Shown one piece after another: positions 34,327 through 40,202 of a stretch of DNA of 64,000 nucleotides (positions are counted from its first letter, which is position 1; each line of letters opens with the position of its first letter). The DNA comes from Capsulimonadaceae bacterium (GTDB taxonomy: Bacteria > Armatimonadota > Armatimonadia > Armatimonadales > Capsulimonadaceae), in the NCBI GenBank assembly GCA_965215505.1, contig OZ244065.1, positions 992,001-1,056,000 on the forward strand, in the 5' to 3' direction. The position numbers and the translations under genes are program-made. The notes under the pieces are model-generated. The model was given only the letters and a program-made list of their open reading frames with translations, was not told where the DNA came from and made no database searches.

Positions 34327-34471
34327 GGCATGAGCAGCATCGCCGCGTACAAAGCTCGGTCAAATGAGCGTATATGCGGCGGCATCTGCGATTAATATGC
34401 CGCTCACAAGCGTATAAAGAACCGGTCACGGATGACCCGATAAACATCCTGTGAATGGAAAGGTAGTACGA

Positions 34472-37132
34472 ATGACACTCACAAGGATTCTGCTCCGCTA
34501 CGTCCTGCCCCTGTTTACCCTCAGCCTCGTCGCTCTCTGCCAGAGGGCCCCCGCCGCCCCACTCGCCGACCGGGTGGCCGTGGCCGGGAACGCCCCCGCC
34601 GTGGCCGCCGCCAGGTCGGCGGGCCGCCTGTCTGGAACCACGCCGGTCAGCATCGCGCTCACCCTCCCCCTGCGGAACCAGGCCGCCTTGGAGGACCTGC
34701 TCGCCCGCCTCCACGACCCGTCCGACCCGGACTATGGGCACTATCTGACCCCGGCGCAGTTCGCCGCACGCTTCAGCCCGACCAAGGCCGACTACGAGGC
34801 CGTGGCCGCCTTCGCCCGCGCCCAGGGCCTGACCGTGACCGGGACCCACGCGAACCGGCTCCTGCTCGACGTTTCCGGCCCGGCGAGTTCGGTAGAAACC
34901 GCCTTCGCCGTCCGCCTGAACCGCTATCAGGCGGCGGATGGCCAGGAGTTCCGCGCGCCGGACGCCGCCCCGTCTGTGCCTCGCGCCCTGGCCGGGCGAC
35001 TGACGGGCGTCGCCGGCCTGAGCGACGCGGCCGTCCGACGTCCGCACAATGTCCGCCTGTCTGACGAGGCGGCCCTCCGGCCGGAGGTGTCCGGGCGTCC
35101 CGCCGCGGGCACCAGCCCCAGGGGTGGCCTGGCACCCACCGACATCAAGGCCGCCTATAACCTGAGCGGCGTCTCCCTCGACGGCACGGGCCAGACGCTC
35201 GCCCTGTTCGAGCTGGACGGCTACAATCCCACCGACATCAGCGCCTACGAGAGCCGCTTCGGCCTGCGGAGCGTCCCGCTCCAGAACGTCCTCCTGGACG
35301 GCGCTCCGGGCACGGCGGGGACGAACGCGGACGAGGTGACGCTCGACATTGAGCTGCAAATCGCACTCGCGCCAGGTGCGAGCAAAATCCTGGTCTACGA
35401 GACCGGCCCCACCGACGCCGATACCCTGGATGCCTACAGCCGGATCGCCGACGACGACCTGGCGAAGCAGATCAGCACCTCCTGGGGGCTGGATGAGCCA
35501 GACAGCGCCCCGAGTACGCTCCAGGCCGAAAACCCCATCTTCCAGCAGATGGCCGTCCAAGGTCAGACCATCTACGCCGCCTCGGGTGACAACGGGGCCT
35601 ACGACACCGGCAGCCGGGCGGACGGCGTGAGCGTGGATGATCCCGCCTCGCAGCCCTATGTCTGCGGGGTCGGCGGAACGACGCTGACGACGAGCGGGGC
35701 GGGCGGTGCCTACGCCTCTGAAACCACCTGGAACGGCGGGAGCGTCGCGAACGGCGCGGGCGGGGGCGGCATCAGCACGGTTTGGGCGACCCCGACCTGG
35801 CAGGAGTCGGCAGTCTCGGCGGCTTCAGGGGGGTCTACGACGATGCGGAACGTGCCGGACGTCTCACTGAACACGAATCCGAACACGGGCTATGCGATCT
35901 ATGTCGGGGGGGCGTGGCAGGTCTACGGCGGGACGAGCTGCGCCGCGCCGCTCTGGGCCGGGTTCACTGCTCTGGTCAACCAGCAGCGCACCGCCAACGG
36001 GTTATCATCACTCGGACAGGCAGCCCCCGTCCTCTATCCGCTCCTGGCCGGCGCGCGCTATGCCGCTGATTTCCACGACATCGCCAACGGCAGCACGAAC
36101 CTGTATTATCCGGCTGTGACGGGCTATGACGATGCTACCGGGCTGGGAACGCTCGACGGGGCCAACCTGCTGGCGGACCTCGTACCGGCCGCCACCGGTC
36201 GCACGCATCTGCTGTGGAACAACACCGACGGGCGCGTCATGCTGTGGAGCATCGCCCAGAACGGTTCCTTCACCCTCAACGGCTTCGGGCCGTACACCGA
36301 CGGTGCCCCCCAGAACCTCTGGCATGCCACCGCCGTCGCGACGGGACCGGACGGCAAGAGCCACCTGCTCTGGAACAACACGGACGGGCGCGTCATGCTC
36401 TGGACGGTAGATGACAGCGGCAGCTTCACCCTGGCGGGCTACGGCCCGTACACCGACAATGGCGCGAACAATCTGTGGAGCGCCACCGGGGTTTCGGTGG
36501 GTCCGGACAACGTCGTGCATCTGCTGTGGAACAACACCGACGGGCGCGTTATGCTGTGGAACGTCGCCCAGGACTTCAGCTTCACGATGGCGGGCTACGG
36601 GCCGTACACGGATAATGGGGCAAACAATCTCTGGTCGGCCACCGCCCTCGCCACAGGCTCCGACAACAAGACGCGCATCGTCTGGAATAACACCGACCAT
36701 CGTGTCATGCTGTGGAGCGTAGACAGCGGCTATAACTTCACCCTGGCCGGCTTCGGCCCTTACACCGACAACGCGCCGGGCAACACATGGTCAGCGGTGG
36801 GCGTGTCGGCGGGTCCGAGTGGCACGACCCATCTGCTTTGGTCCAACACAGACCGCCGCATGATGTTTTGGGATGTGGACAGCTCGTTCAACTTCACACT
36901 GGCAGGCTTCGGCCCCTACACAGACGGTTCTCCTGCGAACCTGTGGAACGCGGCGGCTCTGGCAACGGGGCCGGACGGACTGAGCCACGTCTTGTGGGGT
37001 AACACGGACGACCGGGCCATGCTGTGGGGGGTGGACAGCTCTTTCGACTTTACCGTCTCGGGCTACGGGCCATACACCGATAACGGCGCGAACAACCTGT
37101 GGAGCACCACCGCCGTCTCAGCGGGGCCATGA
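34472..37132 (+). CDS. S53 (sedolisin/kumamolisin) peptidase with pro-domain and six C-terminal 52-aa repeats
   Basis: YLTPAQF...FSP pro-domain; EVTLDIE, SGDNG, GGTSCAAP and GYDDATGLG motifs. Confidence 0.93.
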   Translation: MTLTRILLRYVLPLFTLSLVALCQRAPAAPLADRVAVAGNAPAVAAARSAGRLSGTTPVSIALTLPLRNQAALEDLLARLHDPSDPDYGHYLTPAQFAARFSPTKADYEAVAAFARAQGLTVTGTHANRLLLDVSGPASSVETAFAVRLNRYQAADGQEFRAPDAAPSVPRALAGRLTGVAGLSDAAVRRPHNVRLSDEAALRPEVSGRPAAGTSPRGGLAPTDIKAAYNLSGVSLDGTGQTLALFELDGYNPTDISAYESRFGLRSVPLQNVLLDGAPGTAGTNADEVTLDIELQIALAPGASKILVYETGPTDADTLDAYSRIADDDLAKQISTSWGLDEPDSAPSTLQAENPIFQQMAVQGQTIYAASGDNGAYDTGSRADGVSVDDPASQPYVCGVGGTTLTTSGAGGAYASETTWNGGSVANGAGGGGISTVWATPTWQESAVSAASGGSTTMRNVPDVSLNTNPNTGYAIYVGGAWQVYGGTSCAAPLWAGFTALVNQQRTANGLSSLGQAAPVLYPLLAGARYAADFHDIANGSTNLYYPAVTGYDDATGLGTLDGANLLADLVPAATGRTHLLWNNTDGRVMLWSIAQNGSFTLNGFGPYTDGAPQNLWHATAVATGPDGKSHLLWNNTDGRVMLWTVDDSGSFTLAGYGPYTDNGANNLWSATGVSVGPDNVVHLLWNNTDGRVMLWNVAQDFSFTMAGYGPYTDNGANNLWSATALATGSDNKTRIVWNNTDHRVMLWSVDSGYNFTLAGFGPYTDNAPGNTWSAVGVSAGPSGTTHLLWSNTDRRMMFWDVDSSFNFTLAGFGPYTDGSPANLWNAAALATGPDGLSHVLWGNTDDRAMLWGVDSSFDFTVSGYGPYTDNGANNLWSTTAVSAGP
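36203..37129 (+). repeat. 6 x 156-bp (52-aa) coding repeat
   Basis: HLLWNNTDGRVMLW...FTLAGYGPYTDNGANNLWSATA...GP repeated six times. Confidence 0.9.
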
Positions 37133-37176: not shown

Positions 37177-37182
37177 ATTGGA

Positions 37183-37255
37183 CGGGAGCACCAGGATTCG
37201 AACCCGGGACCTTTCACTTTGGAGGCGAACGCACTACCAGCTGTGCTATACTCCC
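37183..37255 (-). tRNA. trnW: tRNA-Trp (CCA)
   Basis: GGGAGTA-TA-GCAC.AGCTGGTA.GTGC-G-TTCGC.CTCCAAA.GTGAA-AGGTC-CCGGG.TTCGAAT.CCTGG-TGCTCCC-G cloverleaf. Confidence 0.95.
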
Positions 37256-37302
37256 ATGTCGTTTTGTGAGGATAAGGGGCGGGTAAAGCCCGCCCCGACC
37301 GC

Positions 37303-37464
37303 CTACTTCGCTTCGCGGTGCAGCCGATGGACGCGGCAGCGGGGGCAGTACTTGTTCAGTTCCAGCCGCTCCGGGTGCTGACGCTTGTTCTTGGTGGTCG
37401 CATACGTCCGCTCCTTGCATTCACTGCAAGCGAGGGTGATGATGACCCGTGCTTCATTAGCCAT
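37303..37464 (-). CDS. rpmG: 50S ribosomal protein L33 (Zn-binding C+ form); absent from the ORF track
   Basis: [53 protein letters not shown]. Confidence 0.97.
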
Positions 37465-37524: not shown

Positions 37525-38718
<1,194 letters not shown>

Positions 38719-38754
38719 GTTCTAACTTCCTCGTTTGTTCTATGCTTAAGTGTG

Positions 38755-38822
38755 TGGTGCCCACGAAGGGAATCGGACCCCTGGCTTTTTCCTTGCGGAG
38801 AAGCCTAACCCAGTTCCGGGGC
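38755..38822 (-). ncRNA. 68-nt tRNA-like element (pseudo-tRNA or tRNA mimic) in the tuf leader
   Basis: GCCCCG...CGTGGGC-ACCA acceptor, AGGGG.TCCGATT.CCCTT T-arm, no D-stem, GCAA-capped stem in the anticodon position. Confidence 0.7.
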
Positions 38823-38859
38823 ATTGTCTGCGCCCCACCGGTGTGGTGAGACGCCATGG

Positions 38860-38888
38860 ATTATACCCCAAGGCGCGCGCGATTGCAA
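38860..38888 (-). promoter_or_regulatory. sigma70-type promoter of tuf
   Basis: TTGCAA-17 bp-TATAAT on the minus strand. Confidence 0.8.
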
Positions 38889-38909
38889 CCCCTCCTCCGA
38901 ACACGTTCC

Positions 38910-38938
38910 TTGACACCCGAACGAAATGGGCGTATACT
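38910..38938 (+). promoter_or_regulatory. sigma70-type promoter of the first eCIS gene
   Basis: TTGACA-17 bp-TATACT, back to back with the tuf promoter. Confidence 0.8.
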
Positions 38939-38993
38939 TTGCCTGGCTGCGGTGACCTTTCTGCACCTAAACCTCCGTTCAAGGGGAACGAAA

Positions 38994-40202
38994 ATGATCC
39001 AGGACGTTGATGAGACTTTAAGCGCTCTGTTGTCCGCCGAACTGAGCAGGGTCCCCGGCTGCGGCATTACCGACCGGGGACAGATCACCTTCGACCCACC
39101 CGGCGTGGCGGAGGGAGCGGCGGCAGACTCGATGCGCCTCAACCTCTACCTACACGATGTTCGCGAGAACCGCTCCGTCCGTGAGAGCGGCCTGCGGCTC
39201 ACCCGGAAGCCCGGCGAGGACACGGTCGGCGTGCGCCGCCCCCCCGTCAACCTCGACCTCTCCTACCTCGTCACCGCCTACGCCGGGGGCGACGCGGCGG
39301 GGGAACACCGCCTGCTGTCGGAGGCGCTGGGCGTACTGCTCCGCTTCCAGGACGTGCCGGGAGAGTACCTGCGCGGCGTCTTGGAAGAGCAGGGCGTCAC
39401 GCTCGCCGTGGCCCAGCCGGACCACCTCGCGAGCGCCGACCCGCCCGCGCTCTGGCAGGCCCTGGGGGGGCGGATGCGGACCGCCCTCAGCCTGGTCGTC
39501 ACGGCGCAGTTCAACCCCTACGAGACGCGCTGGACCAAGGTGGTGCGCGAGATGGTGATCGGCGTCGGCCTCGGGACGCCGCCGCACGGCCCGCAGCGCC
39601 CCCTGGACGTTTCCTCCATCCGGGTCAGCGTGGCGGGCGTCGTGCTGGACCAGGGCGCGGAGGCGCCGCTGCCGGGCGCCCGCGTGGCCGTGGAGGGCTG
39701 TCCGGGGGAAGCGACCACGGACGCGGGCGGCTTCTTCTCCCTGCTCAACCTGCCGCCCGGCCCGCACACGCTCCGGGTCAGCCGCGCCGGCTACCGGAGC
39801 CGGGAGGCTCAGGTGGTCGCGCCCGCCCCAGGGCACCCCGAGCAGCTGGAGCCGTGCGTCATCACGCTGCACCCGCTGGGAGACGCCGAGCGCGCCCTGG
39901 AGGCGGCGGCGCGGGCGGCGGAGGCCCGCAGCCTGCCGGGCGTCGCCGACAAAGGCCGCCTGTACCACGCCTCCCTGTCCGGCCTGCTCCGCCGCGAGGA
40001 CGGCCTCCCCGCCGCCTATGTCTCGGTCGAGGCGGGCGGCAAGCGGACCACGACCGACGCCGACGGCATCTACTGCTTCCTCGACCTGCCCCCCGGCCCG
40101 CACACGATCACCGCCGACCTGCCGGGGGTTGGACTGCGCGAAATCACCCCCGCCTCCGCCGCCCCGAGGCAGGAAAAAACGGCCACAAAAAAATCTTCGT
40201 AA
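38994..40202 (+). CDS. eCIS Pvc16/Afp16 (DUF4255) tail terminator with carboxypeptidase-regulatory-like domains
   Basis: MIQDVDETL...ITFDPP...LNLYLHDVREN...LSYLVTAY...EHRLL; two C-terminal TTDA.G.F/Y...LPPGPHT domains. Confidence 0.88.
   Translation: MIQDVDETLSALLSAELSRVPGCGITDRGQITFDPPGVAEGAAADSMRLNLYLHDVRENRSVRESGLRLTRKPGEDTVGVRRPPVNLDLSYLVTAYAGGDAAGEHRLLSEALGVLLRFQDVPGEYLRGVLEEQGVTLAVAQPDHLASADPPALWQALGGRMRTALSLVVTAQFNPYETRWTKVVREMVIGVGLGTPPHGPQRPLDVSSIRVSVAGVVLDQGAEAPLPGARVAVEGCPGEATTDAGGFFSLLNLPPGPHTLRVSRAGYRSREAQVVAPAPGHPEQLEPCVITLHPLGDAERALEAAARAAEARSLPGVADKGRLYHASLSGLLRREDGLPAAYVSVEAGGKRTTTDADGIYCFLDLPPGPHTITADLPGVGLREITPASAAPRQEKTATKKSS

Follow-up and report, generated by a model that had tools for sequence, protein, structure and literature searches.

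tRNA-like folds can be found embedded in longer transcripts, as in mascRNA/MALAT1 and in bacterial operon mRNAs, where they recruit RNase P and set the end or the stability of the RNA. The thrS operator, located in the leader of a translation gene, is a mimic of the anticodon arm of tRNA-Thr; it overlaps the ribosome-binding site and binds ThrRS. Regarding the enzymes that handle tRNAs, those reading the elbow and the acceptor end use the coaxial stack of acceptor and T stems, the T loop with the GG of the elbow, the G1:C72 pair and U(-1), and the CCA is an anti-determinant for RNase Z. According to the parts available of three sources, t-elements are cleaved by RNase P/Z and define mRNA ends, and they are CCA-tailed and base-modified but not aminoacylated (PMC1920247; bioRxiv 10.1101/2024.09.09.612099; PMC6546412). 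In E. coli and Salmonella, a tRNA-Thr(GGT) gene lies directly upstream of the tuf copy that is outside the str operon, in the cluster thrU-tyrU-glyT-thrT-tufB, as far as the available part of the source goes (PMC6134099). The locus described below has the same position and ancestry as this gene and as the equivalent Thr-Tyr-(Gly)-Thr(GGT)-tuf clusters. One preprint, in the part available, mentions tRNAs and "pseudo-tRNAs" upstream of genes including that of EF-Tu in general terms. In the open-access literature searched, we found no account of tRNA-like elements in the tuf leader of a bacterium.

Such an element can be found on the minus strand of the window, i.e., the whole stretch of 64,000 nt that was analyzed, which belongs to the genome designated G000. 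Window positions are used as coordinates throughout (Table 1). The order on this strand is promoter, hairpin, tRNA-like element, spacer, tuf, rpmG and tRNA-Trp, the latter being the presumed end of the tuf transcription unit. The hairpin, the 68-nt element, their coordinates and the 36 nt separating the 3' end of the element from the tuf ATG are all present as given in the preliminary description. Two promoter-like sites were detected in the 2.4 kb scanned, against 0.2 expected, and the position of the promoter predicts a transcript start at about 38852-38855. The second, identical tuf copy of the genome (G000:C1:2036673-2037866) is located 3' of fusA and has no element. Two other explanations of the leader were rejected, a leader peptide and a terminator or attenuator. 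A leader peptide (ORF 38699-38857, 52 aa) would have no ribosome-binding site 5' of the ORF, and the lengths of the element among species (67, 68, 76, 78 and 85-89 nt) break a common frame. The hairpin is not followed by the U-run of a terminator or attenuator. As for sequestration of the Shine-Dalgarno sequence by the element, just 4-5-nt complementarities, none of them conserved, were seen by eye in the printed leaders.

Table 1. Features of the tuf leader and of the genes downstream in the window (window positions, all on the minus strand).
Feature	Position	Strand	Evidence or remark
Sigma-70-type promoter, TTGCAA-17-TATAAT	38860-38888	-	Promoter scan, 10/12 consensus positions
5' leader hairpin, 10 bp including 2 G-U, 5-nt loop, -18.2 kcal/mol	38830-38854 (38854-38845 with 38839-38830)	-	Fold
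Seven unpaired bases between leader hairpin and element, the last one being U at 38823		-	Sequence
U(-1), directly 5' of the acceptor stem	38823	-	T in 14/14 elements
tRNA-like element (TLE), 68 nt, from tRNA-Thr(GGT)	38755-38822	-	Fold, homology; covariance model R1, 65.5 bits
Acceptor stem, 5' strand	38816-38822	-	G1:C72 and C2:G71 in 14/14; pairs 3-5 covary; positions 6 and 7 often mismatched
UGG, element positions 11-13	38810-38812	-	Invariant alignment columns
Middle helix with GCAA loop, replacing anticodon arm and variable loop	38783-38805	-	Fold; homologous to tRNA-Thr anticodon stem
T arm, T loop TCCGATT	38766-38782	-	92% mean pairwise identity among copies
Acceptor stem, 3' strand	38759-38765	-	Sequence
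Discriminator A	38758	-	Sequence
CCA	38755-38757	-	Sequence
A-rich 36-nt spacer with Shine-Dalgarno GAGGAAG (38726-38732)	38719-38754	-	Sequence
tuf (EF-Tu, 397 aa), ATG at 38718	37525-38718	-	One of two identical genomic copies
rpmG (ribosomal protein L33)	37303-37464	-	Pfam PF00471, E = 3.1e-23
tRNA-Trp(CCA)	37179-37256	-	ARAGORN; Rfam 65.2 bits

The fold of the window element consists of an acceptor stem of 4 + 3 pairs around a bulged U, with one mismatch besides this one bulge, a GCAA-capped helix, a T arm and a terminal ACCA. It agrees with the preliminary description, in which acceptor stem with bulge, T arm and CCA are retained, the D stem is absent and a GNRA-capped helix replaces the anticodon arm. 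On its predicted fold, the element is unable to decode, as it lacks a D stem and its middle helix ends in a small loop. This loop comprises 4-7 nt by fold and 4-6 nt by hand alignment of 14 copies, and the stem below it is not anticodon-stem-like; the earlier claim of a non-decoding RNA thus holds for all 14 copies, each with a tetra- to hexaloop on the middle helix. Likewise, the D arm, the 7-nt anticodon loop and a call by a tRNA finder, which would be expected of a canonical tRNA, are lacking, ARAGORN making no call at any of the 14 loci. In the window, ARAGORN found tRNA-Trp alone and called the element neither a tRNA nor a tmRNA. The likeness to the tRNA-like domain of tmRNA that had been put forward concerns shape only, since G3:U70, a tag frame and an ARAGORN tmRNA call are all missing; pair 3:70 is C:G in 13 copies and U:G in the remaining one. 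A match to a known Rfam family, which the preliminary description had named as a finding that would speak against it, did not turn up: with Rfam 15, the window element gave no match at gathering score and, at E <= 10, only a chance one (E = 9.3), and no match at E <= 1, RF00005 (tRNA) included, was obtained with four other copies. This structured RNA is thus missed by both tRNA finders and Rfam and left blank in genome annotation. The fold energy of the window element is ordinary (z = -0.37, 66 of 200 shuffles folding equally well), and the whole-element z-scores among copies, from -2.6 to +0.7, are not significant, for which reason thermodynamic stability was discarded as evidence. What sets the element above chance is homology to tRNA-Thr and synteny, not fold energy.

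The element is, judging from similarity and position, derived from a tRNA-Thr(GGT) gene that ancestrally lay between the promoter and tuf. In a blastn search of 41 related genomes, a 36-nt segment of the 3' half, reaching from the middle helix (3' strand) to the acceptor end, is 83-86% identical to real tRNA-Thr(GGT) (E 5e-5 to 2e-3), and the sequences matched are normal tRNA-Thr(GGT) per ARAGORN at most loci. Aligned with the real genes, the element has lost about 8 nt of the D arm and its anticodon loop is rewritten, while the T arm and the 3' acceptor strand are nearly intact. In other genera of the order, tuf is preceded at a distance of 38-265 nt by a real tRNA-Thr(GGT) (18 genomes), which often closes a Thr(TGT)-Tyr-Thr(GGT) cluster, and in G024 the leader hairpin also precedes a real tRNA-Thr. 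Significant similarity is therefore combined with a genomic position shared with a real tRNA gene, which bears out the derivation from a tRNA that was first proposed. In G000, the canonical Thr(TGT)-Tyr-Thr(GGT) cluster can be found at C1:5305606-5305992, 4.3 Mb away and far from either tuf copy. The discriminator is U in real tRNA-Thr(GGT) and a purine (A or G) in all 14 elements. Regarding the CCA, it is encoded in 15 of the 18 genomes having a tuf-adjacent real tRNA-Thr(GGT) and in none of the 15 having a non-adjacent gene, counts that are dominated by few lineages and include the tRNA-Thr(GGT) of G000 itself; about a third of the tRNA genes of G000 encode CCA (20/63 by a crude script test). 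Among distant bacteria, many Tyr-Gly-Thr(GGT)-tuf clusters can be found next to EF-Tu relatives of 71-79% identity (66 loci of sufficient length screened, of 80 listed), and the Thr(GGT)-tuf arrangement of the order mirrors that of many Proteobacteria. A simple T-arm screen, which may miss degenerate copies, detected no extra tRNA-like element beside tuf in these 66 distant loci.

Non-canonical look-alikes before tuf were first seen in six relatives. A covariance model, R1, built from ten copies and searched against 71 genomes of the order, yielded 14 matches of 58-94 bits, the next best (42.5 bits) being a real tRNA-Thr. All 14 matches are in genus g1 and lie directly before the tuf ATG, and ARAGORN calls no tRNA at any of them; the element was detected in 14 of the 24 g1 genomes and in none of the 47 other genomes of the order. 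The remaining ten g1 genomes gave real-tRNA scores only, even in a more sensitive search, and three of them are informative (G015, G013 and G016), the rest being fragmented with this tuf copy not assembled. G015 has the ancestral real tRNA-Thr before tuf. In G013 and G016, this tuf copy follows a short plain leader without element, and the element is evidently dispensable in these two species. A pattern scan of metagenomes matched at least 118 stretches, of which 80 were kept; the 12 R1 matches listed among them reach 36.5 bits at most and provide no new member. Nine of these 12 listed matches are ordinary tRNAs, and no tuf is present in their 11 loci. The metagenome matches L243, L236 and L241 overlap no ARAGORN tRNA.

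In a tree of rpoB, i.e., of one gene and obtained by a quick search, the element is present in both deep clades of genus g1. G015, with its real tRNA, is sister to G006/G002/G009 (support 99), and G013/G016/G017 are nested beside the clade of the long type. These placements imply at least one loss together with a second origin, a reversion or an exchange of the tuf locus between species. As the 76-nt and long types share CUGGCGGAG, which real tRNA does not have, common descent or exchange is favored over independent origin. A comparable situation can be found in genus g10 of the sister family, where two units precede tuf, a real tRNA-Thr(GGT) and, next to tuf, a second, tRNA-like copy; the latter has kept its D arm and has an anticodon loop of 16 or 21 nt (Rfam tRNA 48 and 31.3 bits). 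On these sequences, the tuf-adjacent copy is thus taken to have lost decoding at least twice, in g1 and in g10, with a working copy kept.

The 14 copies fall into three size classes, namely 67-68 nt (G000 and G022), 76-78 nt (G009, G006 and G018) and 85-89 nt (nine species), the long rod-like middle helix of the latter having conserved internal loops. Every copy is preceded by a TTG(C/A/T)A(A/T)-17-TATA(A/C)T promoter and sits between this predicted promoter and the tuf ATG, i.e., in an mRNA untranslated region as is the case for t-elements. The leader hairpin, with differing sequence, can be found in 12 of them. U(-1) is invariant, the remaining leader being about 53% identical, and as a reference T occupies position -1 in 21 of the 63 ARAGORN tRNA calls of G000. 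Also common to all copies are the pairs G1:C72 and C2:G71, a UGG at positions 11-13, at a fixed distance from the 5' end, a nearly invariant T arm and a single hairpin in the middle region despite lengths of 21-42 nt. The UGG is the remnant of the D-loop G18-G19 and would have a role in the contact between D loop and T loop. From the T loop to the discriminator, 12 nt are counted in 13/14. The 3' end is RCCA in 11 copies and AUCA in three (UCA in G019, G020 and G023), and it lies 36-52 nt from the ATG. In the spacer, the block ACGA...GGAAG is kept and the rest diverges at about the neutral rate.

Divergence was calculated as the mean over the 91 pairs formed by the 14 species, with synonymous third positions of rpoB (0.35) serving as neutral yardstick. 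Values were 0.09 for the T arm, 0.21 for the 5' 17 nt of the element, 0.35 for the spacer and 0.47 for the 5' leader; the middle helix, with 0.44, evolves at about the neutral rate, yet the helix is kept. The 5' 17 nt show no divergence (0.00) in four same-type pairs, as against 0.23-0.37 for rpoB synonymous positions. The T arm of G000 is identical to that of G006, although their RpoB proteins are 87% identical, and this identity extends to species with rpoB synonymous divergence of 0.36-0.42, in which the neighboring leader and middle have diverged by about 50%. Covariation among tuf upstream regions, which the preliminary description had proposed to examine across the phylum, was found among the copies of genus g1: in the 14-copy alignment, which was fitted to the model and hence leans towards structure, 96.2% of the cells are paired as against 87.9 +/- 1.1 in shuffles, and slid controls reach 32-57%. 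Double changes occur in 10 of 21 pairs as against 3.7 +/- 1.2, a number matched by none of 500 shuffles; as the 14 species are kin, these counts overstate independent support. On the evidence of this comparison, the element is maintained and is not a simple decaying pseudogene. A normal tRNA in relatives together with unconserved changes had been named as the mark of such a pseudogene; the former can indeed be found, in other genera and in G015, but the changes are conserved in 14 species.

A functionless relic of tRNA-Thr, conserved through recent ancestry, gene conversion or hitch-hiking with tuf, is accordingly considered unlikely. It is consistent with the real tRNA of the outgroups and of G015, with the loss of the element in G013 and G016, with the non-significant fold z-scores and with the comparison of G000 and G022, where the 5' 17 nt differ by 0.29 and rpoB synonymous positions by 0.23, i.e., the 5' half keeps pace with synonymous sites in its divergence. 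The short subtype of the window is apparently the least constrained, and decay at a neutral rate with loss of pairing is otherwise not observed overall. Gene conversion is conceivable, the T arms of element and real gene being identical. This explanation was nevertheless rejected, as the real gene offers no equivalent of the conserved 5' 17 nt, as the derived A49G and the discriminator persist beside the T arm, which would limit conversion tracts to 16 nt or less, and as the T loop of G005 and G014 differs from that of their own real tRNA and is still canonical. Further arguments against a relic are the T arm remaining identical at rpoB synonymous divergence of 0.36-0.42 between flanks that are about 50% diverged, and the helix surviving insertions of about 20 nt as well as double changes. 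In addition, truly broken, truncated tRNA-Thr fragments, which can be found in G021 and G020 (L010 and L195), look quite different.

Considering what is kept, the element may be the bacterial counterpart of organellar t-elements, i.e., a tRNA-type processing signal for RNase P, a reading to which we give an even chance. Once the genome had a canonical tRNA-Thr(GGT) at another site, the tuf-adjacent copy would have lost its D stem and anticodon loop and kept the "top half" of the tRNA, consisting of the acceptor stem, the T arm, an elbow-capable UGG, the 12-layer length of acceptor and T stems, U(-1) and the encoded RCCA. From the promoter at 38888-38860, a transcript comprising hairpin, element, tuf, rpmG and tRNA-Trp would start, as suggested by the layout, and the element would fold as a three-way junction, in agreement with the covariation. 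RNase P would read this fold as a pre-tRNA and cut off the hairpin leader between U(-1) and G1. The element could then remain at the 5' end of the tuf mRNA as a paired cap, with the CCA shielding it from RNase Z, or a cut in the A-rich spacer could free it, as in the release of the real tRNA-Thr. Either way, it would act as a tRNA-type module for processing and stability of a very highly expressed mRNA.

With regard to the two roles suggested in the preliminary description, the predicted anatomy is better fitted by a processing signal than by EF-Tu sensing, because the UGG, the T loop, U(-1) and the 12-nt acceptor/T length are what elbow-reading processing enzymes use. As the hairpin also precedes a real tRNA in G024, the whole layout is that of a pre-tRNA. 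In the genome of the window, genes can be found for an RNase P RNA of class A (222 bits; G000:C1:1094785-1095190), for RNase Z, whose score exceeds the curated cut-off, and for RNases J and E/G. Retention of the RCCA for the contact with the GGU of L15 in RNase P RNA was discarded, this motif not being seen in G000, where the 3' strand of L15 reads CCUUUGC as against the family consensus GGGUAG in a low-confidence part of the alignment. The absence of the element from G013 and G016, the weak constraint on the short subtype and the non-significant z-scores stand against the processing reading. The observation that it explains least well is the unchanged 5' 17 nt in the four same-type pairs. Such invariance exceeds the need of a purely structural signal and hints at a sequence-specific partner of this segment. 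The locus offers a natural experiment on which parts of a tRNA matter once decoding is unneeded: in 14 species with a spare tRNA-Thr, selection retained the minihelix of acceptor and T arm together with the elbow contact, U(-1) and the CCA, and let the D stem and the anticodon arm go.

Alternatively, the transcript could be cut on both sides of the element, releasing a stable, CCA-ended tRNA-like RNA of 67-89 nt that acts in trans and might be charged by ThrRS or serve as a decoy or competitor for tRNA enzymes. It would account for RCCA being encoded in 11/14 elements when about a third of the tRNA genes of G000 have CCA, for the conserved internal loops in the rod-like middle helix of the 85-89-nt type and for the invariant G1:C72 and C2:G71, which are acceptor-stem identity elements for ThrRS. 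However, the anticodon, the major ThrRS identity element, is gone, all 14 copies have A or G where the discriminator used to be U, and the sequence of the middle helix drifts freely (0.44). Together with the absence of the element from G013 and G016, and with the fact that plant t-elements, the nearest precedent, are not aminoacylated in the available parts of the sources, this makes a released RNA improbable.

Quite unlikely, too, is a regulatory mimic whose partner is a tRNA-binding product of the same operon (EF-Tu or L33) or some other factor that binds tRNA, with feedback on the translation or stability of the tuf-rpmG mRNA. Such a mimic would make use of the acceptor stem, T arm and CCA, which are retained and are the tRNA parts contacted by EF-Tu; the 5' 17 nt, unchanged in four same-type pairs beyond structural need, and the presence of the element only on the tuf copy outside the str operon are in line with it. 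However, EF-Tu binds uncharged tRNA weakly, and a CCA internal to the transcript allows no aminoacylation unless it is first cut out. UCA moreover replaces CCA in 3/14 copies, the invariant UGG/T-loop elbow is not an EF-Tu contact, and the element ends 36-52 nt from the ATG with no conserved Shine-Dalgarno pairing noticed by eye in the printed leaders. According to the available part of the source, the Salmonella copy outside the str operon, tufB, is the autoregulated one (Brandis 2016, cited in PMC6134099), but the site of this regulation is at the beginning of the coding sequence or close to it and not in a tRNA gene (PMC6134099). EF-Tu sensing, judged jointly with the binding of L33 or another factor, finds no direct support in this analysis.

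It is very unlikely that the acceptor/T-arm mimic gauges the tRNA-handling machinery, be it through free EF-Tu, through L33 or through how heavily RNase P and tRNA processing are loaded, and adjusts tuf-rpmG to it. If it did, a tRNA gene serving both for decoding and for control in cis of the EF-Tu gene downstream would have been duplicated, one copy then being a tRNA only and the other a regulator only, and this would have occurred at least twice within the order (g1 and g10). An uncleaved structure, in which hairpin and three-way junction protect the 5' end or aid folding without any tRNA enzyme, is highly improbable in spite of the stable hairpin at the predicted 5' end in 12/14 and the RNase J and RNase E/G genes of G000, since any stable hairpin would do and the T loop, UGG, U(-1), 12-nt length and RCCA would be left unexplained.

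Returning to the processing signal and its closest relatives, several known systems share part of this architecture. As in the tRNA-like domain of tmRNA, acceptor stem, T arm and CCA are combined with the absence of a D stem and with a long helix at the site of the anticodon stem. Unlike tmRNA, the element has C3:G70 in place of G3:U70 and neither a tag reading frame nor pseudoknots nor an ARAGORN tmRNA call; it descends from tRNA-Thr and is embedded in an mRNA leader. In the thrS operator, the anticodon arm that is mimicked is exactly the part lost in the element. The signal of mascRNA/MALAT1 is eukaryotic and acts at a 3' end, whereas E. coli secG-leuU involves real tRNAs, and neither of them is a degenerate tRNA kept in a tuf leader. 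Co-transcription of the element with tuf can be presumed by analogy with the tRNA-tufB operon of E. coli and Salmonella; the upstream gene of that operon, in contrast, is a working tRNA, while here it is non-decoding and the working copy is located elsewhere. The t-elements of plant mitochondria and Haloferax are the most similar, being tRNA-homologous, non-decoding and located in mRNA leaders or trailers. According to the available parts of the sources, RNase P and/or RNase Z presumably cut them, and only a subset of tRNA enzymes recognizes them. Differences are nonetheless found: the present element is bacterial, lies in a tuf leader and is known from its sequence, with cleavage proposed; it has no D stem and carries a rod helix of variable length (21-42 nt); and it encodes RCCA, whereas Arabidopsis t-elements have no encoded CCA according to the available part of the source (bioRxiv 10.1101/2024.09.09.612099). 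It would constitute a t-element-like, tRNA-derived processing module, found so far in one bacterial genus and matching no Rfam family. If cleavage is confirmed, the 14 elements would be natural minimal substrates for RNase P and RNase Z, and the t-element principle of organelles and archaea would also apply in a free-living bacterium, at a gene that ranks among its most highly expressed.

Within the order, encoding of the 3' CCA differs between copies of the canonical tRNA-Thr(GGT) gene: it is present in the tuf-adjacent gene in 15/18 genomes and in none of 15 non-adjacent copies, these genomes being phylogenetically non-independent. Because the CCA thus tracks adjacency to tuf, a genomic CCA is suggested to be important to the presumed tRNA-tuf co-transcript, for example by blocking RNase Z. 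With regard to RNase P, the P15/P16 internal loop has GGGUAG on its 3' side in the family consensus, whereas the class A RNA of G000, the genome holding the window, reads CCUUUGC there; judging from a low-confidence alignment at this loop, the GGU for pairing with the tRNA 3' CCA seems to be absent from it.

The T loop of the canonical tRNA-Thr(GGT) is TCCGATT order-wide (loci L003-L029 and L064-L079; G000:C1:5305921-5305992), which places a C at position 55, a pseudouridine site that is U in nearly all tRNAs. TTCGATT is confined to the tRNA-like elements of two genomes, G005 and G014.

Genus g10, which belongs to the sister family, has the canonical tRNA-Thr(GGT) followed by a second tRNA-like copy and then by tuf. 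The D arm of this second copy is intact and its anticodon loop comprises 21 or 16 nt; the tuf-adjacent copy looks to have independently lost decoding. Truncated tRNA-Thr(GGT) genes lacking the 5' half are found in G020 and G021, probably as scars or attachment-site duplicates from integrated elements.

Elsewhere in G000, six tRNA genes (Arg, Asn, Met, Gly, Phe, and Lys) are packed on one strand at C1:2219562-2221409 and could together form a mobile tRNA island. Outside this run, ARAGORN also makes several odd calls, among them a tRNA at 1991483 whose anticodon has 2 bases, and Gly and Arg tRNAs of excess length.

Coordinates of the RNAs, genes and site discussed (L, extracted locus; C1, contig of G000)
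Feature	Position	Strand	Genome
Second tRNA-like copy	L017:336-421	-	g10
Second tRNA-like copy	L018:173-252	-	g10
Class A RNase P RNA	L080:1501-1906 = C1:1094785-1095190		G000
tRNA-Thr(GGT) 3' half	L010:1475-1540		G021
tRNA-Thr(GGT) 3' half	L195:301-367	-	G020
Pro-kumamolisin-domain gene	window 34451-37132	+	G000
Pvc16_N-domain gene	window 38856-40202	+	G000
Promoter-like site	window 38910-38938	+	G000

Regarding the genes flanking the tuf unit, the convergent neighbour of tRNA-Trp is a large gene encoding a sedolisin-type peptidase with a pro-kumamolisin activation domain, and therefore no secE-nusG follows tuf-rpmG-tRNA-Trp in G000. Divergent from the tuf promoter lies a gene, with a promoter-like site at 38910-38938, whose translation probably begins at the ATG near 38996. 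Its product combines Pvc16_N, a domain characteristic of contractile injection or phage-tail-like systems, with subsequent carboxypeptidase-regulatory-like domains.
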